Below, piece after piece: positions 2-63,286 of a DNA stretch of 64,000 bases. The position numbers and the translations under genes were made by a program. The notes beneath the pieces were generated by a model. The model had not been told where the DNA came from. It was given only the letters and a program-made list of their open reading frames with translations, and did not search any database. This stretch comes from Nitrospirota bacterium (GTDB lineage Bacteria; Nitrospirota; Nitrospiria; JACQBW01), in the NCBI GenBank assembly GCA_016194305.1, contig JACQBW010000003.1, forward strand, positions 39,224 to 103,223, in the 5' to 3' direction. The first letter of the stretch is position 1. Every line of letters starts with the position of its first letter.

Positions 2-1009
2 ATTTCATTCTTACTGGTCGGATCTTATTCAATTCTGGAATTATTTTATTTGGCGGGAAACGAACAGGCGTCTATCGTTCTGGAGAAATTAAATATGTTC
101 ATTCACGCTTCAAAAAATATCGAAAACTATAGTTACTTGTATCCCAATAGGGTTCGATCTGTCTCGTCGGAGTCTTCTTGGTTTTCGATGTATAGCGGAT
201 TTGCTTTCCCTTGGATAGTAAGTTATATGTTTACCAGACCAAAGAACTATATTATCTATCTCTTTCTAACTTCGTATTTCCTAATATTAATTATGTTTAC
301 ATTTTCACGTACAGCTCTTGTCATTACGTTTTGTCAATTATCACTTATTATCTATGCCTTAATTAGAGAGAAAGTCAGAAAACTCAAACTTTTGTTTTAC
401 ATGGCAATCTCCATTCTTATTCTAATCGGATTTGCATATACTTCTAACATAGGAAATCTTGCATTTACAGTAAATGATTTAGTCACAAGAATCATATCTC
501 TGGACGCACCTTCAAATCTAGCCCGATTCGGCTCCCAGGTCGCAGCCTTGGAAATGGGAATGGAGAATCCTCTATTTGGTGTTGGATTGGGACAATATGG
601 TTTTCACATGAGCGAGTTTGTTCCTGAATGGGCAAAAGCAAGCTCTGAAATCAGACTCTGGACAAATCCTGCAGTTGGTACTGCATGGCCTCCAATCCAC
701 AGCATCTATGTTCGACTTATCTGTGAAGTTGGTTTAATTGGTTTTCTAATTTGGTGTCTTGCCTGGTTCAATTTAATATATTCCTGTTATAAAACATTAA
801 AATTATCTTCGATTTATATGATAGATGACAGGGAGCTGCATTTCCTCAGCATTTCACTTCTTGTGAGCATGGTCGGAGTGTTTCTGGCCGGTTTCAACTC
901 GGATTCTTTTAGGTTTTTGGGATATTGGTATGTAATGGGAATTGGGTGGTCTTACAATTATTTAACTCAAGTCGATATCAAGAGAACTCTGGAACTAAAG
1001 CTATCTTAA
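2..1009 (+). CDS. O-antigen ligase/polymerase (Wzy/WaaL-like) family polytopic membrane protein. It is partial: the frame is open to the window start, so the N-terminus lies upstream.
   Basis: The frame is open from nt 2 with no start codon. Several hydrophobic helices are present, plus a large loop with G-rich motifs typical of O-antigen ligase-like proteins. The gene sits at the head of a glycosyltransferase cluster. Confidence 0.5.
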   Translation: MSFLLVGSYSILELFYLAGNEQASIVLEKLNMFIHASKNIENYSYLYPNRVRSVSSESSWFSMYSGFAFPWIVSYMFTRPKNYIIYLFLTSYFLILIMFTFSRTALVITFCQLSLIIYALIREKVRKLKLLFYMAISILILIGFAYTSNIGNLAFTVNDLVTRIISLDAPSNLARFGSQVAALEMGMENPLFGVGLGQYGFHMSEFVPEWAKASSEIRLWTNPAVGTAWPPIHSIYVRLICEVGLIGFLIWCLAWFNLIYSCYKTLKLSSIYMIDDRELHFLSISLLVSMVGVFLAGFNSDSFRFLGYWYVMGIGWSYNYLTQVDIKRTLELKLS

Positions 1010-1077
1010 CCTAACTTCCTCAGATATTACTTAAGTTAAGAACATCCGATTGCTAAGCAATCGAAAGGAGAAATAAT

Positions 1078-1791
1078 TTGGGAATGGAAGTACTAAAGAA
1101 AAAAGAAGAAATTGCCGCTGCTAGGATGAAACTGAGAGAAAGAGGACTATCCTTTATGAGCTCAGGTTTAAAGCGCTTCATTGATGCACTGGGACTATAT
1201 AACAGTATCGTTATCGGAGACTTCATTAAAAGTTGGGATGTATTGAAGACTGCAAATTTTATTGAATCCAATGTGAAAAAAGAGATGGCGGTGCTAGATA
1301 TTGGCGCATATGCCTCCGAGATATTATTTGTCCTGCGTGGTCTCAAATATACGAATTTAACAGGTATTGATCTGAATCCAAGAATAAAATCAATGCCATT
1401 TTCCGATACAATTCACTATGAGATATCTAATTTTATGAACACAAAGTTTAAAGACGACTCATTCGACGTAATCACTGCCATTTCGGTCATTGAGCATGGA
1501 TTCAACTCTAGAGACCTCTTATCGGAAGTCTCTCGTCTGCTCAAGTCCGGTGGATATTTTGTTGCCTCTTTTGACTACTGGCCAAATAAATTAGACACCA
1601 ATGGCATTAAAATGTTTGATATGGATTGGAAGATATTCTCTGAGGAAGAAGTTAAAGATATTATAGATGTTGGAAACCGGTTTAAATTAATTCCTTATGG
1701 AAATCTAGATTTTAGAGCGATAGATCAACCCATCAGTTGCGAAAATATGAATTACACGTTTGGTTGGTTGGTTCTGAGAAAAGTTCTTTAA
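1078..1791 (+). CDS. Class I SAM-dependent methyltransferase (Methyltransf_11-like).
   Basis: It has a motif I-like 'VLDIGAYAS' and a post-I acidic residue. 'VITAISVIEHGFNSRDLL...LLKSGGYFVASF' is typical of SAM MTases. AGGAG precedes the ATG at 1084. Confidence 0.7.
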   Translation: MGMEVLKKKEEIAAARMKLRERGLSFMSSGLKRFIDALGLYNSIVIGDFIKSWDVLKTANFIESNVKKEMAVLDIGAYASEILFVLRGLKYTNLTGIDLNPRIKSMPFSDTIHYEISNFMNTKFKDDSFDVITAISVIEHGFNSRDLLSEVSRLLKSGGYFVASFDYWPNKLDTNGIKMFDMDWKIFSEEEVKDIIDVGNRFKLIPYGNLDFRAIDQPISCENMNYTFGWLVLRKVL

Positions 1792-1824
1792 AAGAAATAA
1801 AATTGGATTGCAGACGGAGTTGGT

Positions 1825-2925
1825 GTGAGAATCTTGCTTGTATCAGGATCCTTTCCTCCAATGAAATGCGGAGTGGGTCATTATACCTTCCATCTTGCCA
1901 ATGCATTAGCTAAGAGCGGAAAAGTCACTGTTGGAATATTGACAGGTCAGGCGGCAGGTTCTAGCACACGCGATGTTGATTTTGAAATCATTCCGATTGT
2001 TGAAACATGGAAATTGACAGAAGCTAGAAAAATATTAAAGAAAATTCAATCGTGGCATCCAGATGTTGTTCATGTTCAATTTCCGACTCAAGGTTATGGA
2101 AACAGGGTATTGCCTTGGATCTTGACCATTTTTTTGCAAATTAAAAAGTTTCCTATGGTCCAGACTTGGCATGAATACTATTTAAAGGGAGGGAAACGAA
2201 ATATTCTCAATGCTTTTACTTCCGGTGGTTTGATCGTAGTGAGACCAAAATATAAGGAGATGATGCCACGGTGGTACCGCAATCTTATAAAGCATAAGAT
2301 CTACAAATTTATTCCAAACGCATCTGCCATTCCGGCCGTTCAATTGATCGATGTGGAGAAGGAGGCCATACAAATGAGCTACGCTAGAAAAGGAAAATCC
2401 ATGATTGTCTACTTTGGTTTCGTTTTTCCTCATAAAGGAGTAGATACTTTATTTAAAGTGGCCAATCCCGAGAAACATCATCTTGTCTTCATTTGTGACC
2501 TAAAAGTTGGAGACTCTTATCAGGAGCGGCTTTTGGATACGATAAATAGTCCTCCATGGAAGGGGGCCGTCACTGTGACAGGATATTTATCAGATTCAGA
2601 GGTTGCTCGGATTTTAGCAGCGGCGGATGCCGTTGTACTCCCATTTCGCGAAGGTGCCGGAATATGGAATACTACAGTTCATGCGGCTGAAGCACAGGGC
2701 ACCTTTATTTTGACAACTTCTTGCGATAAGACCCGAGGTTACAATGAAACAGAAAATATCTACTATGCGTTGCCTAATGATATAACAGATATGCAAAAAG
2801 CCTTGGATCTATATAGTGGCAGAAAGCGACAAACATCAAAATCAACAAAAACAATAGATTGGAACTATATTAGTAATGAACATTATAATTTTTATCAGGC
2901 ATTATTAGATAGTAGTCATCCCTAG
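1825..2925 (+). CDS. GT4-family glycosyltransferase.
   Basis: The N-terminus 'MRILLVSGSFPPMKCGVGHYTFHLANAL' is a GT4 N-domain signature. A C-terminal EX7E-like region is present. Confidence 0.8.
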   Translation: MRILLVSGSFPPMKCGVGHYTFHLANALAKSGKVTVGILTGQAAGSSTRDVDFEIIPIVETWKLTEARKILKKIQSWHPDVVHVQFPTQGYGNRVLPWILTIFLQIKKFPMVQTWHEYYLKGGKRNILNAFTSGGLIVVRPKYKEMMPRWYRNLIKHKIYKFIPNASAIPAVQLIDVEKEAIQMSYARKGKSMIVYFGFVFPHKGVDTLFKVANPEKHHLVFICDLKVGDSYQERLLDTINSPPWKGAVTVTGYLSDSEVARILAAADAVVLPFREGAGIWNTTVHAAEAQGTFILTTSCDKTRGYNETENIYYALPNDITDMQKALDLYSGRKRQTSKSTKTIDWNYISNEHYNFYQALLDSSHP

Positions 2926-2932
2926 GCTAAAT

Positions 2933-3955
2933 ATGACGCAAATAAAACTTTCGATTTGCATACCTACCTATAATTTTGGAAATTTTATAGGCGAAACGCT
3001 TTCCTCTATTTTAGGACAAGTCAGTCAATATGTTGAGATTGTTGTTTTAGATGGAGGATCTACAGATAATACTCAAGAAGTAATTCAAGAATTTAAAAAT
3101 CAATACCCTGAAATTCACTACATTCGATTCGATAAAAAGGGAGGCATAGATAAAGATCTATCTTTGTGCGTTGAGAATGCGAGAGGAGAATATTGCTGGT
3201 TAGTGTCAAGTGACGACATAGTCGAAACCGGAGCGATTTTAAGAATGCTCAATGAAATTGAGAGCGGACATGATGTCTATTTATGCAATAGATTGGAATG
3301 TGACATTAATCTCGTTCCCTATAGAAAGCGTCCTTGGTTATCCAATGGGATCGAAGACAGAATATTTGATTTTTCAAACGATACGGAATTAGCTAGTTAT
3401 TTGGATGGATCCCAATCATTAGGAGCGCTTTTTAGTTATATGAGTTCAATCGTGGTAAATCGAAATAAATGGACAAGAGTGGGTTATAACGAGTTGTTTA
3501 CGGGGAGTAATTACGCCCATGTCTTCAGGCTTTTTGAAATATTAAGAACTGGCGGCATTTTAAAATATATCAAAGATTCGCTCGTTAAATGCAGAACCGG
3601 AAACGATAGCTTTTTGGATCGTGGGATAATTCATCGATTTTTGATCGACTTAAAAGGGTATCAACTTTTGGCAGATGAATTATTTAATGCCAATCCTGTT
3701 TTGAAAAAGCAATTCATGTCAGTCATGCAACGTCAACATGCCTGGTACGGATTAATTCGCTTAAGGAGCGAGAATTCGAAAGCGGATCTATGGGGAGATT
3801 TAGAGAGAAGATTTCTTATTTTTGGTTATTCTAAGAAAAAACTGTCCATAATTAGAATTTTGGGATCCTATAGAATCGTTACTTTTTTTCTTCCTGTTAT
3901 AAAGAAAATAGTTAATATTAAAAGAAAACTGATTTTTGATATTAGTGGGGGATAA
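2933..3955 (+). CDS. GT2-family glycosyltransferase.
   Basis: 'LSICIPTYNFGNFIGETLSSILGQ...VEIVVLDGGSTDNT' is a GT-A fold with a DxD-type motif. Confidence 0.8.
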   Translation: MTQIKLSICIPTYNFGNFIGETLSSILGQVSQYVEIVVLDGGSTDNTQEVIQEFKNQYPEIHYIRFDKKGGIDKDLSLCVENARGEYCWLVSSDDIVETGAILRMLNEIESGHDVYLCNRLECDINLVPYRKRPWLSNGIEDRIFDFSNDTELASYLDGSQSLGALFSYMSSIVVNRNKWTRVGYNELFTGSNYAHVFRLFEILRTGGILKYIKDSLVKCRTGNDSFLDRGIIHRFLIDLKGYQLLADELFNANPVLKKQFMSVMQRQHAWYGLIRLRSENSKADLWGDLERRFLIFGYSKKKLSIIRILGSYRIVTFFLPVIKKIVNIKRKLIFDISGG

Positions 3956-23049: not shown

Positions 23050-24379
23050 TGAACTCAGCGATAAGTTAAACGCGATCTTCAAGAAAATCCGGGGAGTGGG
23101 TGTTTTAAGAGAAGAGAACATCACCGAAGCGCTCAGAGAAGTCCGACTGGCCCTTCTTGAAGCCGATGTTCATTTTAAGGTGGTGAAAGGTTTTGTCGAT
23201 TCAGTCAAAGAGAAGGCCATAGGCCAAAAGGTCATGGAAAGTCTGACTCCGGGTCAGCAGATGATCAAAATTGTCTATGATGAGCTGGCTCAATTGTTGG
23301 GTGGACAACAGGCAAAAATTCCGATGTCTTCCCGTCCTCCCACCCGATTCATGCTGGTCGGTTTGCAGGGAGCGGGGAAGACGACGACTGCCGGAAAGCT
23401 GGCCTTATTCTACAAGAAAGAGGGAAAACGAGTCCTCTTGGTTCCGGCAGACCCCTATCGTCCCGCCGCGAAATCCCAGCTGGAGTTTCTTGGAAAACAG
23501 ATCGACGTTACGGTTGATTCGTCGGACCTGAACGAACCCGTCCTGATCGTGGCCAATGCCATAAAAAGAGCGGAAAGAGAGGGTTTTGAACTCGTCATTA
23601 TCGATACGGCGGGCCGGCTCCAGATGGATGAAGCCCTGATGATGGAGCTTCAGGAAATAAAAAAACTTGCCCAACCTGATGAAATTCTGATGGTGGCTGA
23701 CGGAATGATCGGCCAGGAAGCGGTCAAAGTCGTGGAAGGTTTTCATCAAAGGTTAGGGGTGACCGGAATTATTTTAACTAAAATGGAAGGGGATGCAAGA
23801 GGCGGTGCGCTCCTTTCGATGAAACAGGTCACCGGAATGCCAGTACGATTTATGGGGACTGGCGAAAAGCTGGAAATGCTGGAATTTTTTTATCCTGACC
23901 GGATGGCTTCACGAATTCTTGGGATGGGCGATGTGCTTTCACTTATTGAACTGGCCCAGGAGAATTTTGACAAGAGCGAGGCTGAAAACGTCGCCAGGAA
24001 ACTTCAGACCAATCAGTTCACTCTGTCCGATTTTAAAGAGCAGATCAAACAGTTTAAGAAACTCGGTTCGATTGAAAAAGTCCTTTCCATGATTCCCGGA
24101 GCCGGACAATTGAAACTCAAAGGGGATATGGCGATGCCTGAAAAGGAATTTGTAAGAATTGAAGCGATAATTGATTCAATGACCCTGAAGGAGCGTGACA
24201 ATCCCGGAGTGATCAACGGCTCAAGGCGGAAGCGTATTGCGAAAGGAAGCGGAACTTCCGTTCAGGAGATCAACAAGCTTCTCAAGCAGTTTATGGAAGC
24301 AAAGAAAATGATGAAAACCTTAAGCGGCAAGGGCGGAGCGAGAAATCTATGGCGTTCAATATCTTCAATGAAAGGTTAA
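23042..24379 (+). CDS. ffh: Signal recognition particle protein Ffh.
   Basis: The N domain and a G domain with 'LVGLQGAGKTTT' and 'IDTAGRL' are present. The Met-rich M domain has 'GRRKRIAKGSG'. Confidence 0.9.
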   Translation: MLNELSDKLNAIFKKIRGVGVLREENITEALREVRLALLEADVHFKVVKGFVDSVKEKAIGQKVMESLTPGQQMIKIVYDELAQLLGGQQAKIPMSSRPPTRFMLVGLQGAGKTTTAGKLALFYKKEGKRVLLVPADPYRPAAKSQLEFLGKQIDVTVDSSDLNEPVLIVANAIKRAEREGFELVIIDTAGRLQMDEALMMELQEIKKLAQPDEILMVADGMIGQEAVKVVEGFHQRLGVTGIILTKMEGDARGGALLSMKQVTGMPVRFMGTGEKLEMLEFFYPDRMASRILGMGDVLSLIELAQENFDKSEAENVARKLQTNQFTLSDFKEQIKQFKKLGSIEKVLSMIPGAGQLKLKGDMAMPEKEFVRIEAIIDSMTLKERDNPGVINGSRRKRIAKGSGTSVQEINKLLKQFMEAKKMMKTLSGKGGARNLWRSISSMKG

Positions 24380-25194
24380 AGTCTTTATTTGACTTTACTT
24401 CAGACGGAGTGATTATTCTCGATCATGCGATGAAAATCGTCGAGATTAATCCCGCGGCCGAAGCCATGACCGGTTGGAAGGCATCTGAAAGAAGAGGGTC
24501 TCCATTTCCGTATGAAAAACTGATTTCCCTGGATCCCGCCCAAAAAAAAGAAACAGGCGTTGACCTCTTTAATACGGCCGAGAGCCGCCATGACCTGGAA
24601 ATGGAAGTGACCCTTCTTCATGGCAATAAACTTCATCTTCCCGCGACCAGCTTTCCGATTTCCGGTGAAGGAGGGGAGCAATTTTTTGGTTTGATCCTTG
24701 AAAATATCTTAATGAAAGAGGGGGTTGTTGAGAATTTAATCCGACAGGAACGATTGGACGAGATGACCGGCCTCCTCCATAAGGACTATTTTCAACAGGT
24801 CTCAGGGGATGAAATAAGAAGAATGAACAAGAACGGTGGAACCCTCGGAGCAATTCTGATTCAAATCAAGAATCTGGACAAGATCCGGGAGAAGTTTGGC
24901 TCCGTCAAAGGAAGCGAAACGATCAAAAAGGTGGGAAGCCTGGTTAAGGGCAATTCCAGAGATATCGACCTGGTCTGCCGTTATGACGAAAACGAGTTTC
25001 TGGTCCTGCTCATTAATTCGGATACTGCCAAAATGAGTATCATTCTAAGGCGGCTCAAAGAAAAACTGGTTCATTCGAATAAAAGCGCCCATTTTCCTGC
25101 TCCGGTTCGGATCCGGTTGGGAAACGTGCTCGTGAATGACCACTATGAGGAAATCTTTAAAGCGGTTAAACTCTCGCTTGATAAATTTGTATAA
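24349..25194 (+). CDS. PAS-domain protein with a degenerate GGDEF domain. The active site is Y-D-E-N-E-F in place of GG(D/E)EF.
   Basis: The PAS-like N-terminus is 'DGVIILDHAMKIVEINPAAEAMTGW'. The GGDEF-fold C-terminus has 'LDEMTGLLHKDYF' and 'RYDENEFLVLL'. Its start overlaps the ffh stop by 31 nt. Confidence 0.65.
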   Translation: MAFNIFNERLKSLFDFTSDGVIILDHAMKIVEINPAAEAMTGWKASERRGSPFPYEKLISLDPAQKKETGVDLFNTAESRHDLEMEVTLLHGNKLHLPATSFPISGEGGEQFFGLILENILMKEGVVENLIRQERLDEMTGLLHKDYFQQVSGDEIRRMNKNGGTLGAILIQIKNLDKIREKFGSVKGSETIKKVGSLVKGNSRDIDLVCRYDENEFLVLLINSDTAKMSIILRRLKEKLVHSNKSAHFPAPVRIRLGNVLVNDHYEEIFKAVKLSLDKFV

Positions 25195-54944: not shown

Positions 54945-55772
54945 ATGAAAGCTCGTTTACCCGAGCGCATTATCTGTTTGTCAGGCGAAACGGTTGACGT
55001 CCTCTATCAGCTTGGCGAAGAAAACCGTATTGTGGGCGTTTCTTGTTTCACGGATAGGCCACCCCGGGCACGTAAAGAAAAACCAGTGGTTTCCTCATTT
55101 ACCTCGGCAGACATCAAAAACATTATTCAGTTGAATCCGGATTTGGTCCTGGGTTTTTCCGATCTTCAGGGAGATCTATTCAGAGAGCTCGTAAAATCAG
55201 GTCTTCAGGTACATCTCTTTAATCAGCGGACAATTCAAGGGATTCTCGACATGATACTCATGCTTGGTGGCATGGTGGGTGCTCAAGCCGGAGCAAGACG
55301 ACTGATGTCCCGGATCATTGGCAAGATCGAGAAAATCCGCAAGAAGAGTGCGTTGTTAACTCGTAATCCCGTTGTCTATTTTGAAGAATGGGACGAACCT
55401 CTCATTTGCGGGATTGGATGGGTCTCAGAATTAATCACCGTTGCCGGAGGAACGGATTGTTTCGCGGAGCTTGCGACTCGATCGATTGCGGCGGAGCGGA
55501 TTTTACGGGATTCGTCTGAAATAATGCAACAAATGCCAGACATTATCATTGGATCCTGGTGTGGAAAACCTTTTAATATCTCAGACGTTAGAAACCGGGA
55601 CGGGTGGAATATCATTCCCGCAATTCGAAACGGAAATATTTTTGAAATTCGCGCATCAGATATTCTCCAGCCGGGCCCTGCCGCCCTGACAATTGGACTG
55701 GAACAACTCTCAACGATCATTTTAAACTGGGAGGCAAAACGGAAGCATGGATTCAACCCGAAGTTAAAATGA
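54945..55772 (+). CDS. Periplasmic-binding-protein type 8 (BtuF/FecB-like) domain protein with no recognisable signal peptide.
   Basis: 'RIICLSGETVDVLYQLGEENRIVGVS' and 'NPDLVLGFSD' are typical of cobalamin/siderophore SBPs. The N-terminus MKARLPERII lacks a hydrophobic signal. Confidence 0.55.
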   Translation: MKARLPERIICLSGETVDVLYQLGEENRIVGVSCFTDRPPRARKEKPVVSSFTSADIKNIIQLNPDLVLGFSDLQGDLFRELVKSGLQVHLFNQRTIQGILDMILMLGGMVGAQAGARRLMSRIIGKIEKIRKKSALLTRNPVVYFEEWDEPLICGIGWVSELITVAGGTDCFAELATRSIAAERILRDSSEIMQQMPDIIIGSWCGKPFNISDVRNRDGWNIIPAIRNGNIFEIRASDILQPGPAALTIGLEQLSTIILNWEAKRKHGFNPKLK

Positions 55773-55774
55773 AT

Positions 55775-56134
55775 CTAAATCTGTTTATTCTTGATAAGAA
55801 AATCGATATTCAGGAGAGAGACCTGCAAGACGGGTTCGAATTTCACCCCTATTTGGTAGCCGGAAGGTTCTTTGACTCCCGGTGCGGCGGCCCATACAAC
55901 ACGAGAGTTAACCGTGATAATATTTCTCTGATGGTAAAATCGCATCTGCAGAGGAGTCCCGACCAGAATGGGATCGAATGAAATAATCAAAACTCCCCCT
56001 CTTCCGAGATTTCGAATTGTGCTGAGACTTCGGACTTTGTTTTGATAGGGCTCGAGGATTCGATAGTCCCCGCCTAAATCCAGTATGACCCGGTCATCCT
56101 TTCGCTTCCAAATGAGTTCTGAATTGGAAACCAT
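55775..56134 (-). CDS. PilZ-domain protein.
   Basis: At 119 aa, it has R-rich N-terminal and 'D.S.GG'-like 'RNLGRGGVLII' elements. Confidence 0.6.
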   Translation of the reverse strand: MVSNSELIWKRKDDRVILDLGGDYRILEPYQNKVRSLSTIRNLGRGGVLIISFDPILVGTPLQMRFYHQRNIITVNSRVVWAAAPGVKEPSGYQIGVKFEPVLQVSLLNIDFLIKNKQI

Positions 56135-56192
56135 GTGCCTATTATACTTAAAACCAGTTTAAAAGACAAAAGAGTTTACACCTTTAATTAAG

Positions 56193-56219
56193 TTGAATCC
56201 GGAAGGAGAATGGTATAAT
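56193..56219 (+). promoter_or_regulatory. Promoter with an extended -10: TTGAAT, 15 nt, TGGTATAAT.
   Basis: Read directly from the sequence. It lies about 40 nt upstream of the hybrid kinase start, and AAGGAG precedes the TTG at 56257. Confidence 0.55.
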
Positions 56220-56256
56220 TTAAATTTGATTCTTAACGGAAATAAGGAGAATCTTA

Positions 56257-58875
56257 TTGCCATTAGATGCGGAAAGGAGAAAATCAACCCACCGAACAAT
56301 CAATAGAAATTCGCTCATTATCTGGCTCTTTTTTATCACATTTACCGTCAATCTCACCGTTTTTCTGTTCGCCTTTGAAATCAATAATGTTTTACGGCTG
56401 TTTATTCTTGCTGAAAGCCGTTTCAAGGGACATTATTATAATGCGGTTATTTCATTAAAGACCTATCTCGATTCTCGTTCAGAGAGCGATTTTCAGGATT
56501 ATAAAGCTCATCTGGTTCCCCTCTATCTTTATAAGAGTGCTCAAGATGAATTGGACAAACAGAATCTGGATTTCAGGCTGTTTTCAACCCAGATGAAGGA
56601 ATTGAAATTTGGCGATGGAGATATTTTTCGAATAGCAATTTTCTTCAGAACGCTACGAAATTCGGAGTTCTTTAAGGTCAGTAAAAATATTATTCAGGAA
56701 GGTTCTAAAAAGGTTCAATCACTGGATCTGATTGGAGAATATTATCATCAAAATCTGAAACAAAATCCGGTAAATCAGATTACCGTCAAGGAAAGTATTG
56801 AGCAATTGAGAGATCTTGATAGACGAATGGAATATCTCTTTTCAGAATTTTCCGATAAGATAAATTATTTATACTTTAAAATGACATTGATTTCAGAAGT
56901 GGCGACTTCATCCATTGGAATTTGTCTCCTCTTCTTCGGAATTTATGCTTCACGAAAGATCATTGAAAAATCGGAAATTGACCGGAAGGCACTCGAAAGC
57001 AGCGAAGCCCGGCTCCGCCTTTCCATGGAGCAGATGCCGGCATCTATTTGGACCACGGATCCATTTCTGCGAATTACGACTTCGACCGGTGCGGTAATGA
57101 TTGAACCCAGTCCTGGAGGGGAACCGATACTTGGCAGATCAATTTCCACTTTGCTTGAAAAGAGTCCATTGAAAGAATTAATAGTTCAAAAACATCAGGA
57201 TGCTCTAAAAGGAGAATCTGGTCATTATGAATTTCTTTTTGGTGCCCGTTTCTGGACTGCCCATGTCGAACCGTTTCGCGATCGAAATGGCTTGATCACA
57301 GGCGTTTTAGGAATTGCTTACGACATTACCGAAAAAAAGAGCCAGGAAAGCAAACTCATTGCTGAAAAGGAACGTTTACTGGTCACACTCGGTTCTATTG
57401 GCGATGCAGTCATTACAACGGATAAAGAGGGAAGAGTGACATTAATGAATCCTGTTGCCCAGGATCTATCCGGATGGAGCCAGGCAGAGGCGGAAGGGAA
57501 ATTTCTTCCTGAAGTATTTCAAATTTACAACGAATTGACCGGGTCCGCTTTAGAAAATCCTGTCTCCAAAGTCATCTCAACCGGTCGAACTGTTGCCATT
57601 GCCAATCATACGATTTTAAAGTCAAGGGATGGGACAGTACGTGCAATTGCTGACAGCGGTGCTCCAATCCAGGATTCGCAAGGAAACATATTGGGAGTCG
57701 TTCTGGTTTTTCGAGATGTCACCCAGCAAATGAAGATTCAAAATGAACTTTTAAAAAAAATGAAACTGGATTCATTGGGACTTCTGGCGGGCGGAATCGC
57801 TCATGATTTTAACAATATTCTTACCGCAATATTGGGAAACATTTCACTCGCCAAAACAGAACTCGATCCTGGATTAACGGCGATTCGGTACCTCAACGAA
57901 ACAGAAACGGCCACCCTTAAAGCGAGAGACCTTTCCTCGCAGTTACTGGCGTTTACGAAAGGGGGCGCCCCTCAAAAAAAGGTGACTTCTATCGCCCGCC
58001 TGGTCGAAGAATCAACCCGTTTTGTTTTGAGGGGGTCTAATATCAAGTCAGTCTTCTATTTTCCGGACAATCTCTGGTTGGGAGAGTTCGATCCGGGACA
58101 GATCGCCCAAGTGGTACATAACCTGGTAATCAATTCGAAGCAGGCCATGTCGGATGGAGGAGAGATCATTATCAGTGCGGCAAATACAAATATTGAGGAA
58201 CCTCGTGCGACGGCGCTCATCCTGGATGTAGGCCCCTATGTTGCAATTACGTTTAAAGATAACGGAAAGGGAATTCCATCGGATCAGATTAACAGGGTTT
58301 TTGATCCCTTTTTCACCACGAAGGAAAAGGGGTCCGGACTTGGACTTTTTTCCGCCTATTCAGTGGTCAAAAATCATAACGGAACAATCGGGATTGATTC
58401 GAAAGTGGGTTTAGGTACCTCGATAACAGTTTATCTTCCTGCCATCATGAAAAATTTTCCTGCCGAGGAGAACCAAAGTGAGAAGATATTTAAGGGCTCT
58501 GGAAGAATTCTACTGATGGATGATGAAGAGTTTGTCAGAAGTATGGCTTCAGAAATGTTAAAAAAACTGGGGTACGATGTCGAATTGGCCACACATGGGG
58601 AAGAAGCACTTAATATCTATCGGAAGGAAAAGGAAACTGGCCGCGGTTTTAATGCAGTCATTATGGATCTCACGGTCCCAGGAGGGAAAGGAGGAAGAGA
58701 AACGATCCAGGAAATGATGGCGTTCGATCCTGCAGTCAGAGGAATTGTATCGAGCGGGTATTCCAATGACCCCATCATGGCTAACTTCAGACAATACGGC
58801 TTCCGGGGGTGTGTTGCCAAACCGTACCGAATCCAGGATATCAGTAAGGTTCTGAACCAGGTCCTGCAATCTTAA
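56257..58875 (+). CDS. Hybrid sensor histidine kinase (TM-anchored, PAS repeats, HisKA, HATPase, C-terminal receiver).
   Basis: The H-box is 'GIAHDFNNILTAILGN'. The ATPase has 'DNGKGIP', 'GSGLGL' and similar. The receiver is 'ILLMDDEEFVRSM...VIMDLTVPGG'. Confidence 0.85.
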   Translation: MPLDAERRKSTHRTINRNSLIIWLFFITFTVNLTVFLFAFEINNVLRLFILAESRFKGHYYNAVISLKTYLDSRSESDFQDYKAHLVPLYLYKSAQDELDKQNLDFRLFSTQMKELKFGDGDIFRIAIFFRTLRNSEFFKVSKNIIQEGSKKVQSLDLIGEYYHQNLKQNPVNQITVKESIEQLRDLDRRMEYLFSEFSDKINYLYFKMTLISEVATSSIGICLLFFGIYASRKIIEKSEIDRKALESSEARLRLSMEQMPASIWTTDPFLRITTSTGAVMIEPSPGGEPILGRSISTLLEKSPLKELIVQKHQDALKGESGHYEFLFGARFWTAHVEPFRDRNGLITGVLGIAYDITEKKSQESKLIAEKERLLVTLGSIGDAVITTDKEGRVTLMNPVAQDLSGWSQAEAEGKFLPEVFQIYNELTGSALENPVSKVISTGRTVAIANHTILKSRDGTVRAIADSGAPIQDSQGNILGVVLVFRDVTQQMKIQNELLKKMKLDSLGLLAGGIAHDFNNILTAILGNISLAKTELDPGLTAIRYLNETETATLKARDLSSQLLAFTKGGAPQKKVTSIARLVEESTRFVLRGSNIKSVFYFPDNLWLGEFDPGQIAQVVHNLVINSKQAMSDGGEIIISAANTNIEEPRATALILDVGPYVAITFKDNGKGIPSDQINRVFDPFFTTKEKGSGLGLFSAYSVVKNHNGTIGIDSKVGLGTSITVYLPAIMKNFPAEENQSEKIFKGSGRILLMDDEEFVRSMASEMLKKLGYDVELATHGEEALNIYRKEKETGRGFNAVIMDLTVPGGKGGRETIQEMMAFDPAVRGIVSSGYSNDPIMANFRQYGFRGCVAKPYRIQDISKVLNQVLQS

Positions 58876-58888
58876 CCACGAAGTTGTT

Positions 58889-60184
58889 CTATTTCGTTCC
58901 AAATTTTGTTTCAATCTCTACGCCAAGGCTCTTGAGGAAATCAGTTGGGAGAATTCCTCCTGCGCAAACGATGACTGTGTCGTTTTTGAGATCGGAGATT
59001 TTTCCTCCCGATTCTATACTGACGCTGTCTTTTTTGATTTCCTTTACATTTGAATTGAGAATAACTTTGACTTTTCCGGAGGAATTGAGCTCATTTAATT
59101 TCTGACGATTTTTTTCTTTTACCCGTGAGAAGGCCTCTCCCCGATAGGATAAGGTAACTGTCGAACGTGGTTCCATTGCGATTGAAACGGCTGCCTCAAG
59201 AGCCGCATCCCCTCCCCCGACGACGAGAATATGCTGATTTTTGTATTGTTCTGGATCGATTAACCGATAAACCACTTTCGGGAGTTCTTCACCGGGTACG
59301 CCCAGTTTCCGTGGCGTTCCACCTCTTCCCAGTGTGAGGAGGACCGCACGGGTTTCATAGGAAGCTTGCGAGGTCTTGACAATAAATCCGCGATCGATCT
59401 TTTCAACAGAGTCCATTCTCTCATTGTATTGGATCTTGATTCCGGTTTTAGCTTCTGTTTCTTTCATAAATACCAGAAGCTTCTCCTTCCCGATTTCACC
59501 AAATCTTATTTCTCCCACCAGGGGAAGTTTGGCGGGCTGGGTCATGACGATTTTCCCACGTGGAAAATGAGCCACTCTTCCTCCGAGAGCTTCCTGCTCC
59601 AGCGTGATCGAGCGAAGCTGGAATTGCTTGCTGGCAAGTGTGGCCGAAAATCCGGCCGGTCCCGCTCCTACAATAACCAGATCCAAAGGCGTTCCGGTTG
59701 ATTTCAGTTTTCGAATGGATTCAATTGCTTGCCGGCCCTGTTCGACCGCGTTACGAATGAGACCCATTCCTCCAAGTTCTCCAGCTATGAAAATGCCCGG
59801 CACATTGGTTTCGAAATCAGGCTTGACATGCGGAATATCCACACCTCTTTTCTTGGTGCCAAAAACAAGCGTTATGGCCTCGACCGGACAGGCGGCAAAA
59901 CAGGCTCCATGTCCGATGCAGTGGGTTGGATTAATGATGGCTGCTTTTCCTTTTATCAACCCAAGAACATCCCCTTCCGGACAGGCCGATATGCAACTTC
60001 CAGAACCGATGCAAAGATCCGGATCGATTACCGGATGAAGAGAAGGAGGCTCCGTTAAACCTTCTTTCCGAGCTGTTTCAAGTTTCATTAGGTTATGGTT
60101 ATCCTTTTTCTTGCGCAAGATTGACTGGATGGTCCATATGAGCACTATTGAAATCGAGATGATAATGATAGGTTCAAAAGTCAT
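58889..60184 (-). CDS. Membrane-anchored oxidoreductase with two 4Fe-4S ferredoxin motifs and an FAD/NAD(P)-binding domain.
   Basis: 'CIGSGSCISACPEGD' and 'CIGHGACFAACP' are the ferredoxin motifs. 'IFIAGELGG', 'VIVGAGPAGFSA' and 'ILVVGGGDAALEAA' are Rossmann motifs. Confidence 0.7.
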   Translation of the reverse strand: MTFEPIIIISISIVLIWTIQSILRKKKDNHNLMKLETARKEGLTEPPSLHPVIDPDLCIGSGSCISACPEGDVLGLIKGKAAIINPTHCIGHGACFAACPVEAITLVFGTKKRGVDIPHVKPDFETNVPGIFIAGELGGMGLIRNAVEQGRQAIESIRKLKSTGTPLDLVIVGAGPAGFSATLASKQFQLRSITLEQEALGGRVAHFPRGKIVMTQPAKLPLVGEIRFGEIGKEKLLVFMKETEAKTGIKIQYNERMDSVEKIDRGFIVKTSQASYETRAVLLTLGRGGTPRKLGVPGEELPKVVYRLIDPEQYKNQHILVVGGGDAALEAAVSIAMEPRSTVTLSYRGEAFSRVKEKNRQKLNELNSSGKVKVILNSNVKEIKKDSVSIESGGKISDLKNDTVIVCAGGILPTDFLKSLGVEIETKFGTK

Positions 60185-60262
60185 GAAAAGAACTCCCCTT
60201 TTCCTTTTCTATCTAATTTTTGATTGCGAGCAGGCAGGTATTGCAACGGGGAAAGGTCACAT

Positions 60263-60643
60263 TTAACTGAAAAAAGACTTGTTTCCCGTGTGAATATTGA
60301 CGATGTGGTTGATCGTGTCCAAATTTTCATTTGAAATGTCTGTAAATATGGCGCCGCTCTTAAATATATAAGTGTCTCGTTTCTGGATTTTTTCTGTCCA
60401 GACACCTCGTGCGGTAAATTCGATCAGCTTTGAGTAGTAAAGCAGTCTCATCGGAAGTTCTTTTCCAACCGAAAGGGGAATCGAAGAAAGGAACATCAGT
60501 CCGCCTTTTCCAATTGTTTTGAGATAAAGAGGGACTTCTTTTTCGTAACTTCCGTTTATTGAAATTGGGTAGTAAGCCAACATGTCAATGTTGAGTCTTG
60601 GAAAATTGCGGTTGAATTCGGGTTTTTTTATCAAGGTGGACAT
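60263..60643 (-). CDS. PilZ-domain protein.
   Basis: 'NRNFPRLNIDM' and 'TIGKGGLMFLS' match the PilZ RxxxR / DxSxxG elements. Confidence 0.6.
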   Translation of the reverse strand: MSTLIKKPEFNRNFPRLNIDMLAYYPISINGSYEKEVPLYLKTIGKGGLMFLSSIPLSVGKELPMRLLYYSKLIEFTARGVWTEKIQKRDTYIFKSGAIFTDISNENLDTINHIVNIHTGNKSFFS

Positions 60644-60652
60644 CTTTTCAGA

Positions 60653-61018
60653 TTAGGAGAAGCGATTAAACTCTTTAATAAGTTCCTTTTCAAGACAGCC
60701 CAAATAATCATATAGACGGGGTTCATGATCGGGGCTAATTTCCTGGTCAAATTGCACACCGATCAAATTTTTCTCGCCCCATTCCGTAAAATTCTTTACC
60801 ACCCCGCTCAAGAGCACTCTTGAAGTACGTGAGCCCGTATGAATATCGGCTTCGAGAAATATGGGGGTTCCTTTTTGAATCACGACTTGAGTCGATATGC
60901 CGACACCACACCTGGAAAACATTTCAATTGAGCCAGGAAATTCCAGTTGACTATAGCCAGTCTTGACGACGGCTGAGCCCGTAATAGGAAAACGCGGATA
61001 TTTTCTTGGTGTATGCAT
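60653..61018 (-). CDS. PilZ-domain protein.
   Basis: 'RKYPRFPITG' and 'SRCGVGIST' match the PilZ elements. Confidence 0.55.
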   Translation of the reverse strand: MHTPRKYPRFPITGSAVVKTGYSQLEFPGSIEMFSRCGVGISTQVVIQKGTPIFLEADIHTGSRTSRVLLSGVVKNFTEWGEKNLIGVQFDQEISPDHEPRLYDYLGCLEKELIKEFNRFS

Positions 61019-61174: not shown

Positions 61175-63286
61175 TTAGTTGGGTGTGCCATTCACTTCAA
61201 TAGATGCAGGTCCTTCGCCCAAACCATTGACAGCTTTTACTATAAAATAAAATGTATTTCCTGTGGCAAGAGTCAGCTGCAAGTTGGGAATCGTCGTATT
61301 CGTCACGGAGGTATAATGTCCGGAAGTTGTTCCCATGTAAACGTTATAGGAGTCTGCTCCAGGAACATCATCCCAGGAAAGAGAGATTGTTCCGGTTCCC
61401 GCACTGGCAAGCAAATTAACCGGAGCTGACGGCAAACCGATTCCCGGGAGAGTGACCTGGACATTTGGGCCACCCGTACATGATATTGAAATAAGTCCTG
61501 CGTCCCCTACGGTCAGAAAGTCGCTTCCTGACCAGATGACACCTAGCAATCTCTGGAAAGTGCCGGCCGGCTGCAACGTCCAAGTGACTCCATCCGGTGA
61601 CGTCCGAATCGTTCCGGAATCTCCGACGATGACAAAGAGGCTGCCCGACCAGACGATACTGTTGAAGGTGCTGCTGTTACCGGGAAAGGAGTAAGTCCAG
61701 ATGATTCCGTCAGACGAAGTCAGAACGATTCCAAGGCTTCCAACCGCCACGTATAGGCTGTTAGATGTCGCAATACCATGCAGCGTATTATTGACATTTG
61801 AAGTCTGTTCGGACCAATGTACGCCATCGGTTGACGTGACAATTTTCCCGGAACCTCCCACGGCGATAAACTGGCTTCCTGACCAGGCGACGCTGTACAA
61901 GGGATCGGTAAAATTTGAATTCACAGATTGAAGAGTCCAGAGTGTTCCATCCGTTGAAGTCAGAATGGTGCCGCGATCGCCTACTGAAACCATAAGCGTA
62001 TTGCTGGCTGACCACGTCACGCTGTAAAGTGTAACCGCCGTGGGTGAATTTTGAACGGTGGTCCAGGAGGTCCCATTTTGCGAAGTCAATATCGTTCCGT
62101 TCTCGCCTACGGCCACGATATTGGGCCCGGCTTGAACAATACCATTCAGAGAGTTGGCGGTCTGGGTATTGCCTACGCTCCAATCAATTCCGTTCGGAGA
62201 AGTGAGAAGTGTCCCTAGATCTCCGACCACCAGGTATTGCGTTCCGGTCCAGATCGAACCGGAGAGTAACCGCGTGGTCCCTGACGTCTGAAGGACCCAG
62301 GCGATCCCGTCTCCGGAAGTCAGAATGGTCCGCGATTCACCGACTACAAGATAGTTTGAACCAGTCCAGATAATTCCAAAAAGGTGATTCGTTGTTCCCG
62401 ATGACTGAGTTGACCATGTCACTCCATCCGGCGAAGTCAGAATGGTTCCGTTATTTCCAACGGCCACAATTTTTGATCCGCTCCAGGCCAGGTTTGAGAG
62501 GGAATATCCCGAATGTTGATTCGTCCAGGAAATTCCATTCGGGGAAGTGAATATGGATCCCGCTTCGCCTACCGCAACAAACAGCGGCTGAGTGATTCCT
62601 CCTATCCATTTTACGTCATTAAATGCCGGTGGGGTATAACTGGCAGATGCTATTAAAGAATGATCCGTCCAGATTATTCCGTCAAGAGAAGTCAAAATGG
62701 TTCCCACATTTCCAACCGCGACATATTCCGTTCCGGACCAATCCACACTGTAAAGGGGCTGATTGGTCGAAGTCGTTAAACCGGACCAATGGATCCCGTC
62801 TCTTGAATCCAAAATTATTCCATTTCCACCCACAGCCAAAAACTGACCTCCTATCCAGTTCACCCGGTAGAGCAAATTGGTCGTGCCGGATGTTCGAGTG
62901 GTCCAGGTCATCCCGTCAGCCGAAGTGAGAATAAGACCAGGGCCGCCGACTGCCACAAAAAGTGAAAGAGACGGCGACCAAGTAATTCCGACCAGCGTAT
63001 TGGTTGTTCCGGAAGCGCTCTTATTCCAACTGACTCCATCAGGAGAAACCAGTATCGTCCCATTTTCCCCTACAGCCGCATAAAGGGCAAGAGACTGAGA
63101 CCAGGCCACACGATAAATCGGTTTGGCTGAGACAGATATCCAATCGGCGCAAGAGGGGTTATTGGATGAAGAACTGGAAGAGGATAAGACAGAGGAACTG
63201 TTAGATTGAGGCGCAGAACCACAATTTACAATGATACTTACAAATACTATTGAAAGTATTACTTTAATAAAAGTTGGATGCATCAC
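61175..63286 (-). CDS. Lipoprotein with 13 or more BNR/Asp-box-like repeats (S-x-D-G-x-x-W, beta-propeller type) and a C-terminal fibronectin type III domain.
   Basis: The lipobox signal is 'SIIVNCGS'. 'ILTSPDGVTW', 'TSADGMTW', 'TSTDGTLW' and similar recur about every 40-45 aa. The C-terminal FN3 has 'SWDDVPGADSYNVY'. Confidence 0.7.
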   Translation of the reverse strand: MMHPTFIKVILSIVFVSIIVNCGSAPQSNSSSVLSSSSSSSNNPSCADWISVSAKPIYRVAWSQSLALYAAVGENGTILVSPDGVSWNKSASGTTNTLVGITWSPSLSLFVAVGGPGLILTSADGMTWTTRTSGTTNLLYRVNWIGGQFLAVGGNGIILDSRDGIHWSGLTTSTNQPLYSVDWSGTEYVAVGNVGTILTSLDGIIWTDHSLIASASYTPPAFNDVKWIGGITQPLFVAVGEAGSIFTSPNGISWTNQHSGYSLSNLAWSGSKIVAVGNNGTILTSPDGVTWSTQSSGTTNHLFGIIWTGSNYLVVGESRTILTSGDGIAWVLQTSGTTRLLSGSIWTGTQYLVVGDLGTLLTSPNGIDWSVGNTQTANSLNGIVQAGPNIVAVGENGTILTSQNGTSWTTVQNSPTAVTLYSVTWSASNTLMVSVGDRGTILTSTDGTLWTLQSVNSNFTDPLYSVAWSGSQFIAVGGSGKIVTSTDGVHWSEQTSNVNNTLHGIATSNSLYVAVGSLGIVLTSSDGIIWTYSFPGNSSTFNSIVWSGSLFVIVGDSGTIRTSPDGVTWTLQPAGTFQRLLGVIWSGSDFLTVGDAGLISISCTGGPNVQVTLPGIGLPSAPVNLLASAGTGTISLSWDDVPGADSYNVYMGTTSGHYTSVTNTTIPNLQLTLATGNTFYFIVKAVNGLGEGPASIEVNGTPN

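Follow-up and report, generated by a model that had tools for sequence, protein, structure and literature searches.

Three single-domain PilZ proteins beside a hybrid histidine kinase and an Fe-S flavoprotein in a Nitrospirota bacterium

Genes at the locus

We analyzed a stretch of 64,000 nucleotides (hereafter, the window) from contig JACQBW010000003.1 of a Nitrospirota bacterium (assembly GCA_016194305.1, a metagenome-assembled genome). It carries three genes for small PilZ-domain proteins, PilZ1, PilZ2 and PilZ3, and, between PilZ1 and the other two, the genes for a hybrid histidine kinase (HK) and a ferredoxin-flavoprotein (Table 1). An initial annotation, made from the sequence without database searches, had delimited these five open reading frames (ORFs) and had read them as an output module for cyclic diguanylate (c-di-GMP) coupled to a redox signal. 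We confirmed the coordinates of all five ORFs exactly. All three PilZ ORFs encode single-domain PilZ proteins with an intact RxxxR motif and a probably canonical fold. Comparison of the locus with its relatives shows PilZ3-PilZ2 to be the deeply conserved unit; the three genes together are best explained as an old tandem array.

Along the minus strand, the gene order runs from a TauE-like gene through the gene of a 703-aa lipoprotein to PilZ3, PilZ2 and the flavoprotein gene. The HK gene lies on the plus strand, convergent with the flavoprotein gene and divergent from PilZ1, which is in turn convergent with a Peripla_BP_2 gene preceded by a 1-Cys peroxiredoxin gene. Farther on, the minus strand carries a 78-aa ORF, a NifU-like gene, pyrR, pyrB, pyrC, carA and carB. 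The GC content around the PilZ region is ~43-47%. PilZ2 begins 9 nt past the stop codon of PilZ3, the flavoprotein gene lies 78 nt downstream of PilZ2, and we found no terminator-like site between the three genes. Because of these short gaps and the lack of a terminator-like site, PilZ3, PilZ2 and the flavoprotein gene are likely co-transcribed as one unit, an arrangement restricted to the clade of the window.

PilZ1 and the HK gene share a divergent intergenic region of 122 bp. The extended -10 promoter that had been proposed for the HK gene can be read directly from the sequence, and the consensus promoter scan missed it because its -35 spacing is just 15 nt. On the minus strand (56134-56169), a TTGTCT-17-TATAAT element ends at position 56141, 7 nt ahead of the ATG of PilZ1 (56134), without a Shine-Dalgarno sequence. 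PilZ1 has a promoter-like site of its own, and its mRNA may be leaderless.

Table 1. Features of the PilZ locus and other annotated elements of the window
Feature	Coordinates	Strand	Size or score	Description	Source
PilZ1	55775-56134	-	119 aa	R11-K-D-D-R15; N42-L-G44-R-G-G47; deviation from [D/N]hSxxG: Ser to Gly	ORF list
PilZ2	60263-60643	-	126 aa	R12-N-F-P-R16; T43-I-G45-K-G-G48; deviation: D/N to Thr, Ser to Gly	ORF list
PilZ3	60653-61018	-	121 aa	R5-K-Y-P-R9; M33-F-S35-R-C-G38; deviation: D/N to Met (Lys in one ortholog)	ORF list
Hybrid histidine kinase (HK)	56257-58875	+	872 aa		ORF list
HK promoter and ribosome-binding region	56198-56256	+		Extended -10 TGgTATAAT at ~56210-56218, then AAGGAG-N7-TTG	
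Ferredoxin-flavoprotein (Fe-S flavoprotein)	58889-60184	-	431 aa		ORF list
Predicted lipoprotein	61175-63286	-	703 aa	Lipobox IVNC, BNR/Ycf48-like beta-propeller repeats, C-terminal fn3	
PAS-GGDEF	24349-25194	+	62.7 bits	Only GGDEF-family gene of the window	

Family assignment and predicted fold

PilZ2 and PilZ3 match the Pfam family PF07238 (gathering threshold, 22.5 bits) with 28.0 bits over residues 11-115 and 34.9 bits over residues 5-105, respectively. The only match of PilZ1 is to TIGR02266 and lies below threshold (27.7 bits, cut-off 68.7). PilZ1 and PilZ2 are paralogs, with 24% identity (BLASTP, 1e-8), and PilZ3 has no detectable BLASTP similarity to either of them. A word-indexed homolog search gave 3-7 relatives per PilZ protein. 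When a profile of PilZ1/PilZ2 orthologs was run against 1.84 billion cluster representatives, 453 proteins were retrieved at E ≤ 1e-3, and 36 at E ≤ 1e-10. We aligned 60 diverse relatives of PilZ1/PilZ2 (alignment A4), in which the mean column identity is 28%. The profile built on A4 matches the c-di-GMP-bound structures of MrkH (7.6e-8), MotI (8.6e-6) and Alg44 (9e-5). Against the same structure database (PDB), a narrower profile of 12 PilZ1/PilZ2 sequences had found only Xanthomonas PilZ proteins, at E~1, and it is with 60 sequences that the ligand-bound PilZ structures are reached. PilZ3 returned no match in the PDB with phmmer, nor did a 7-sequence PilZ3 profile. The alignment of the PilZ3 profile to A4 with hhalign has a probability of 96.8% (E = 2.4e-10).

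The AlphaFold2 model of PilZ1 on A4 (predicted local distance difference test, pLDDT, 85; predicted template modeling score, pTM, 0.76) consists of a disordered N-terminal loop, strands at residues 15-26, 36-44, 47-52, 61-68, 71-83 and 93-99, and a helix at 104-118. Six strands followed by a C-terminal helix are the canonical PilZ topology (Galperin and Chou, 10.1101/814665). The top Foldseek matches of this model in the PDB are PilZ domains only, from c-di-GMP-bound structures, with template modeling scores of 0.6-0.73, and comprise BcsA, Alg44, MotI, MapZ, PA0012, VCA0042, YcgR, MrkH and PP4397. For PilZ3, the model could be built from only 7 sequences and has a pLDDT of 49.

The ligand site

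Binding of c-di-GMP by PilZ domains had been proposed to be checked on the RxxxR motif and on the [D/N]xSxxG motif. The first is kept in all three proteins, but the second is non-canonical in each of them (Table 1). In the HMMER alignment of A4 with MrkH, 'kRkfpR' falls on 'RRRDPR' and 'knlGeGG' on 'KDISDGG', the counterpart in MotI being 'YNISAGG'. hhalign carries these motif columns over to PilZ3, where M33 lands at the D/N column. The hydrophobic residue ('h') and the final Gly of the second motif are retained in PilZ1, PilZ2 and PilZ3.

Throughout A4, the sole invariant columns are R11, R15 and G47. Within the individual groups of orthologs more is fixed: RKYPRFP, S35 and G38 are invariant in PilZ3 (51-84% identical), and so is KT[IL]GKGG in PilZ2 (57-91% identical). 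The nearest ~40 representatives of the family mostly have x-L-G-x-G-G together with an intact RxxxR, and distant members have N-I-S-x-G-G; over the whole retrieved family, the Ser position is occupied by S in 104 sequences and by G in 74. Because x-L-G-x-G-G with an intact RxxxR predominates among the nearest representatives, we regard the Gly variant as a stable trait of a subfamily. Since the two Arg and the motif Gly alone are invariant over 60 diverse relatives, ligand binding is probably kept, and this pattern of conservation suggests that PilZ1, PilZ2 and PilZ3 probably still bind c-di-GMP, possibly with altered affinity.

According to precedents in the literature, PilZ domains can tolerate single deviations from the motifs. 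The S147A mutant of YcgR reportedly retains c-di-GMP binding. In its binding ability it is unlike the non-binding R118D mutant (PMC12393566), and PA2989, which has no D/N residue, still binds c-di-GMP with a Kd of 2.88 uM (10.1101/814665; 10.1101/2020.02.11.943704). The subfamily to which PilZ1 and PilZ2 belong (~36 cluster representatives at E ≤ 1e-10) has Gly fixed at the 'Ser' position and an invariant RxxxR, and it offers a cheap test of how much of [D/N]xSxxG binding requires.

Conservation of the neighborhood

We compared the neighborhoods of related loci (designated by L numbers) by means of exact-protein look-ups and tblastn. The arrangement of the window was found only in its closest relatives, L081, L082 and L089 (76-85% identity). 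L081 and L082 have the HK gene, PilZ1 (~78% identical to that of the window) and the periplasmic binding protein gene in a row, with the peroxiredoxin gene as a further possible member. L089 has the BNR-repeat gene, PilZ3, PilZ2, the flavoprotein gene and the HK gene in the same order as the window (PilZ3 84% and flavoprotein 85% identical). The HK gene lies next to PilZ1 only in the close relatives L081, L082, L084 and L085, and it is missing from L086.

In L086 (PilZ3 66%, PilZ2 70% and PilZ1 49% identical), PilZ3, PilZ2 and PilZ1 are contiguous. The trio is followed by IS21-like fragments, a small ORF, NifU, pyrR, pyrB, pyrC and carAB, and the neighborhood has no HK, flavoprotein, periplasmic binding protein or peroxiredoxin gene. 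L087 and L088 (51-57% identical) have the PilZ3-PilZ2 pair alone, with genes of small membrane proteins on one side and a convergent PhzF-like gene on the other. The pair is also present in L090, L091 and L092, so that a PilZ2 ortholog adjoins a PilZ3 ortholog in L084, L086, L087, L088, L089, L090, L091 and L092. A metagenome scan with the PilZ3 profile added one close locus (L092) and 12 distant single PilZ genes without common context.

Because PilZ1 and PilZ2 are paralogs and the trio is contiguous in L086, the clustering of the three genes is explained by common descent from a tandem array. The initial annotation had described the PilZ genes as organized around the kinase and a redox enzyme, and had asked for the conservation of this neighborhood. 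The description was not borne out: the arrangement is limited to the closest relatives, the trio forms one block in L086, and the HK and flavoprotein genes are not kept with PilZ beyond the window's own clade. Insertion of the HK and flavoprotein genes in the clade of the window is the simpler reading, since L087 provides the more distant comparison.

The IS21-like transposase fragments of L086 (positions 3092-3781) lie between the PilZ1 ortholog and the small-ORF and NifU genes. The window carries the periplasmic binding protein and peroxiredoxin genes at the same position, which is thereby identified as a hot spot of rearrangement.

The hybrid histidine kinase

As had been claimed, the HK is a membrane-anchored hybrid kinase with PAS domains. 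Two transmembrane segments (residues ~20-42 and ~211-229) delimit a periplasmic loop of ~165 aa, and the domains are two PAS stretches, HisKA (H516), HATPase_c and REC. We treat the kinase as a neighbor of the PilZ genes, and as a putative partner at most.

L083 (positions 979-3458; GCA_016178565.1, JACOTB010000129.1) comes from essentially the same organism, and there the HK is called as two genes, of 676 aa and of a 119-aa REC. The split call may reflect either a frameshift in that assembly or a genuine difference between strains; the HK of the window is intact.

The Fe-S flavoprotein

The flavoprotein had been described as a transmembrane-anchored oxidoreductase with two 4Fe-4S clusters and FAD. 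The N-terminal transmembrane helix, the Fer4 dicluster domain and the flavin domain (Pyr_redox_3/YpdA-like, that is, YpdA/TrxR-like with FAD and NAD(P)) were all recovered, but the two 4Fe-4S clusters are not assured because both ferredoxin motifs are without their second Cys. These motifs, at residues 58-69 and 89-100, read CxxSxxCxxxCP (CIGSGSCISACP) and CxxHxxCxxxCP (CIGHGACFAACP), with Ser and His, respectively, in place of the second Cys. The domain has only six Cys, and the homologs in L001 and L002 show the same pattern. The motifs suggest 3Fe-4S or Ser/His-ligated clusters instead of two standard 4Fe-4S clusters.

A scan of a genome collection returned 80 loci with homologs of the flavoprotein (L001-L080; 53-76% identity), from Nitrospiria and many Proteobacteria. 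None of the 80 has a relative of PilZ1, PilZ2 or PilZ3 within 10 kb of the flavoprotein gene, and none has the HK. The homolog is instead flanked by a divergent multihaem cytochrome of the c7/c3 type in 49 of the 80 loci and by an unannotated membrane protein of ~300 aa in 45, and ccm genes (CcmG-like, CcmH, CycH) recur nearby. The multihaem cytochrome is present as well in L001 and L003, the two closest loci from Nitrospiria. A search of the window found neither the cytochrome nor the membrane partner, and for this reason we consider the flavoprotein gene displaced from its usual context. Its placement after PilZ2 is no evidence of an old functional tie.

Flavoprotein, cytochrome and membrane protein, often together with ccmG, ccmH and cycH (for example at 7268-8827 of L033 and 2838-3746 of L029), apparently form a recurrent module that is as yet undescribed.

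Interpretation and alternative explanations

We propose with moderate confidence that the three proteins are array-derived single-domain PilZ adaptors, most likely c-di-GMP-binding, and that the HK and the flavoprotein are recent, lineage-specific neighbors. An old tandem array ordered PilZ3-PilZ2-PilZ1 would have given rise to the three adaptors. They would bind c-di-GMP via the N-terminal RxxxR loop and the variant second motif (h-G-x-G-G for PilZ1 and for PilZ2, x-h-S-x-x-G for PilZ3), and would relay the signal through protein-protein contacts of the C-terminal helix, much as other stand-alone PilZ proteins do. Among these, MapZ acts on CheR1 and HapZ on the REC domain of SagS (10.1101/814665; 10.1101/2020.02.11.943704). 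If there is any coupling at this locus, the most plausible routes would be of PilZ1 to the REC of the adjacent HK, in the manner of HapZ and SagS, and of the PilZ3-PilZ2 pair to a flavin oxidoreductase, which the pair might modulate or with which it might be co-regulated. The obvious candidate partners are the HK in the case of PilZ1 and the flavoprotein in that of the pair; the comparative evidence does not single them out. We regard both as co-expressed neighbors in this organism, outside any conserved PilZ-redox module.

Several observations weigh against this explanation. The second motif deviates from [D/N]xSxxG in all three proteins, and we found in the literature no characterized PilZ protein with Gly at the Ser position. 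PilZ1 has no Pfam match at E ≤ 1. The motifs of PilZ3 were placed on the profile-profile alignment alone because of the low pLDDT of its model. The one PAS-GGDEF protein of the window is probably no active cyclase, because the signature YDENEF replaces GG[DE]EF. The first of these points, the missing Pfam match and the degenerate GGDEF gene would all fit degenerate PilZ domains that do not bind c-di-GMP and act as ligand-independent adaptors, like the PilZ proteins PA2960 and XAC1133, or bind another ligand. Non-binding members are known among single-domain PilZ proteins, where they make up large clusters (10.1101/2020.02.11.943704), and the narrow family profile weakly matches the non-binding Xanthomonas PilZ (E~1). 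We nevertheless consider such a loss of binding improbable. In the non-binders known so far, both RxxxR and the N-terminal loop have been lost, whereas here both Arg are invariant over 60 relatives in which nearly all else varies, and the motif Gly and the 'h' residue are retained as well. PilZ1 is modeled with all six strands of the barrel, unlike the truncated xPilZ domains, and the wide profile favors ligand-bound PilZ structures (7.6e-8) over the Xanthomonas type (8e-4). The direction of the rearrangement can also be disputed: the HK and flavoprotein genes could have been deleted in L086, a possibility that stays because of the IS remnants nearby.

A further objection comes from the redox enzymes. 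In L086 (3-1046), L090 (1-1110) and L092 (3-665), a NADH:flavin oxidoreductase of the YqjM/OYE family lies on the minus strand, divergent upstream of PilZ3. Pairwise, the PilZ3 proteins encoded there share only 64-70% identity, with L086 and L090 (85%) as the exception. With the Fe-S flavoprotein of the window, the PilZ pair adjoins a flavoenzyme in two different clades, and the redox link could be real after all. The PilZ proteins would then form a redox-coupled c-di-GMP output module, relaying c-di-GMP to or from the PAS hybrid HK and the flavin oxidoreductase, with PilZ1, for example, gating phosphotransfer from the HK REC and PilZ3/PilZ2 regulating the membrane flavoprotein. The operon-like PilZ3-PilZ2-flavoprotein order, the common 122-bp region of PilZ1 and HK, the persistence of the arrangement in L081, L082 and L089, the different flavoenzyme beside the pair elsewhere, the redox-rich region with its 1-Cys peroxiredoxin and NifU-like protein, and the precedent of HapZ and SagS, in which a PilZ protein acts on a hybrid kinase (10.1101/2020.02.11.943704), are in its favor. 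Still, such a module seems unlikely to us. The trio of L086 is found without HK or flavoprotein, the neighbors of the L087 pair encode small membrane proteins and a PhzF-like protein, and none of the 80 flavoprotein homologs, most of which lie beside cytochrome and ccm genes, is near PilZ or this HK. OYE is an enzyme unrelated to the Fe-S flavoprotein, and for this reason 'redox' is a loose category picked post hoc; we found no OYE gene in the window. The OYE adjacency is a lead chosen after the fact, a hint and a weak point in favor of redox. The observation of the initial annotation was accurate, and its functional interpretation is in part, and weakly, supported.

The recurrence of the PilZ3-PilZ2 pair beside flavin oxidoreductases is a testable lead to its target. 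In a bolder version, which we hold to be very improbable, PilZ3-PilZ2 would be a heterodimeric c-di-GMP receptor, a split PilZ-PilZ with a Gly-rich variant site, that controls NAD(P)H-dependent flavin oxidoreductases, the target being OYE in certain Nitrospirota lineages and, at this locus, the membrane Fe-S flavoprotein. If true, it would tie c-di-GMP directly to redox or electrophile-stress enzymology; to our knowledge, such enzymes have not yet been described as a class of PilZ targets.

Relation to known PilZ systems

Few kinds of c-di-GMP receptor are commoner than stand-alone PilZ proteins, most of which lack a known target. More than 13,000 of them had been catalogued by 2020 (10.1101/2020.02.11.943704). 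The locus adds three uncharacterized members from an uncultured Nitrospirota lineage, and these are ordinary, slightly variant additions to a very large and well-known receptor family. They resemble the canonical stand-alone PilZ proteins MapZ/PA4608, PA0012 and DgrA in their length of ~120 aa, the N-terminal loop with RxxxR, disordered in the PilZ1 model, the six-strand beta-barrel with C-terminal helix of that model, and the 'h' residue and Gly of the second motif. They differ from them in the non-canonical second motif of all three, and their genes are without the chemotaxis or flagellar context of the canonical receptors.

The closest parallel to a possible PilZ1-HK partnership is HapZ (PA2799), a single-domain PilZ protein that binds the REC of the hybrid kinase SagS. 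PilZ1 is likewise encoded next to a hybrid HK with a REC domain, but this likeness is one of gene position, the adjacency is found only in close relatives, and no Hpt or cognate response regulator was identified near the locus.

Tandem duplication of pilZ gave rise to PilZ-PilZ di-domain proteins and to YcgR-like ones (Galperin and Chou, 10.1101/814665). The tandem array described here, with PilZ3-PilZ2 kept as a unit, is comparable, and the PilZ1/PilZ2 family search also retrieved many proteins of 210-250 aa with two PilZ stretches. In contrast to those proteins, the genes of the locus are separate and both members of the pair keep RxxxR. The in-frame 9-nt spacing of PilZ3 and PilZ2 is not kept in L086, and among 166 retrieved proteins we found no specific fusion of a PilZ3-like with a PilZ2-like domain; one, P0071, is weak and non-specific and provides no evidence.

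PilZ3 shares with PA2989 (xxSEGG) the missing D/N and the retained Ser and Gly (10.1101/2020.02.11.943704). PA2989 is, however, a tetramer-forming tPilZ protein with a two-helix insert of ~60 aa, which PilZ3 does not have. The tPilZ class (PF16823) was rejected for the locus as a whole: the proteins have 119-126 aa, no insert and no PF16823 match, and 3RQA and 3PH1 rank low in Foldseek. We also rejected the non-binding xPilZ class (PilZ PA2960/XAC1133), given the invariant RxxxR and the six-strand barrel of PilZ1 against the incomplete five-strand barrel of that class. Matches to 3DSG and 4F48 are weak: the narrow profile gives E~1 and the wide one 8e-4, compared to 7.6e-8 for MrkH. The Gly-variant subfamily and the adjacency to flavin oxidoreductases are of modest value and do not overturn current understanding.

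The c-di-GMP setting and other features of the window

The absence of GGDEF and EAL genes near the PilZ genes, noted previously, holds for ~30 kb on the side covered by the sequence, but the window as a whole does contain one PAS-GGDEF gene (Table 1). A regular-expression scan of the window found no GG[DE]EF, no EAL-type and no real HD-GYP motif.

The gene of the 703-aa lipoprotein lies directly upstream of PilZ3. It is kept in this position in L084 and L089, and is not there in L086, L087, L090 and L092. On the other side of the locus, the product of the Peripla_BP_2 gene (54945-55772, plus strand; BtuF/IsdE-like) has no signal peptide or hydrophobic segment, an unusual lack among periplasmic binding proteins, and its gene is not adjoined by ABC transporter genes. 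Farther away, an exopolysaccharide cluster occupies 0-9 kb (from window position 50 on) and includes a Wzy-like protein, a GT2 and two GT4 glycosyltransferases, methyltransferases and a sugar transferase. Next comes a Tad/Flp pilus cluster, at 9.8-16.6 kb (to 16589), with TadE, RcpC/CpaB, a secretin and an FHA-domain CpaF ATPase. Both clusters are typical c-di-GMP outputs, but more than 39 kb separate them from the PilZ genes.

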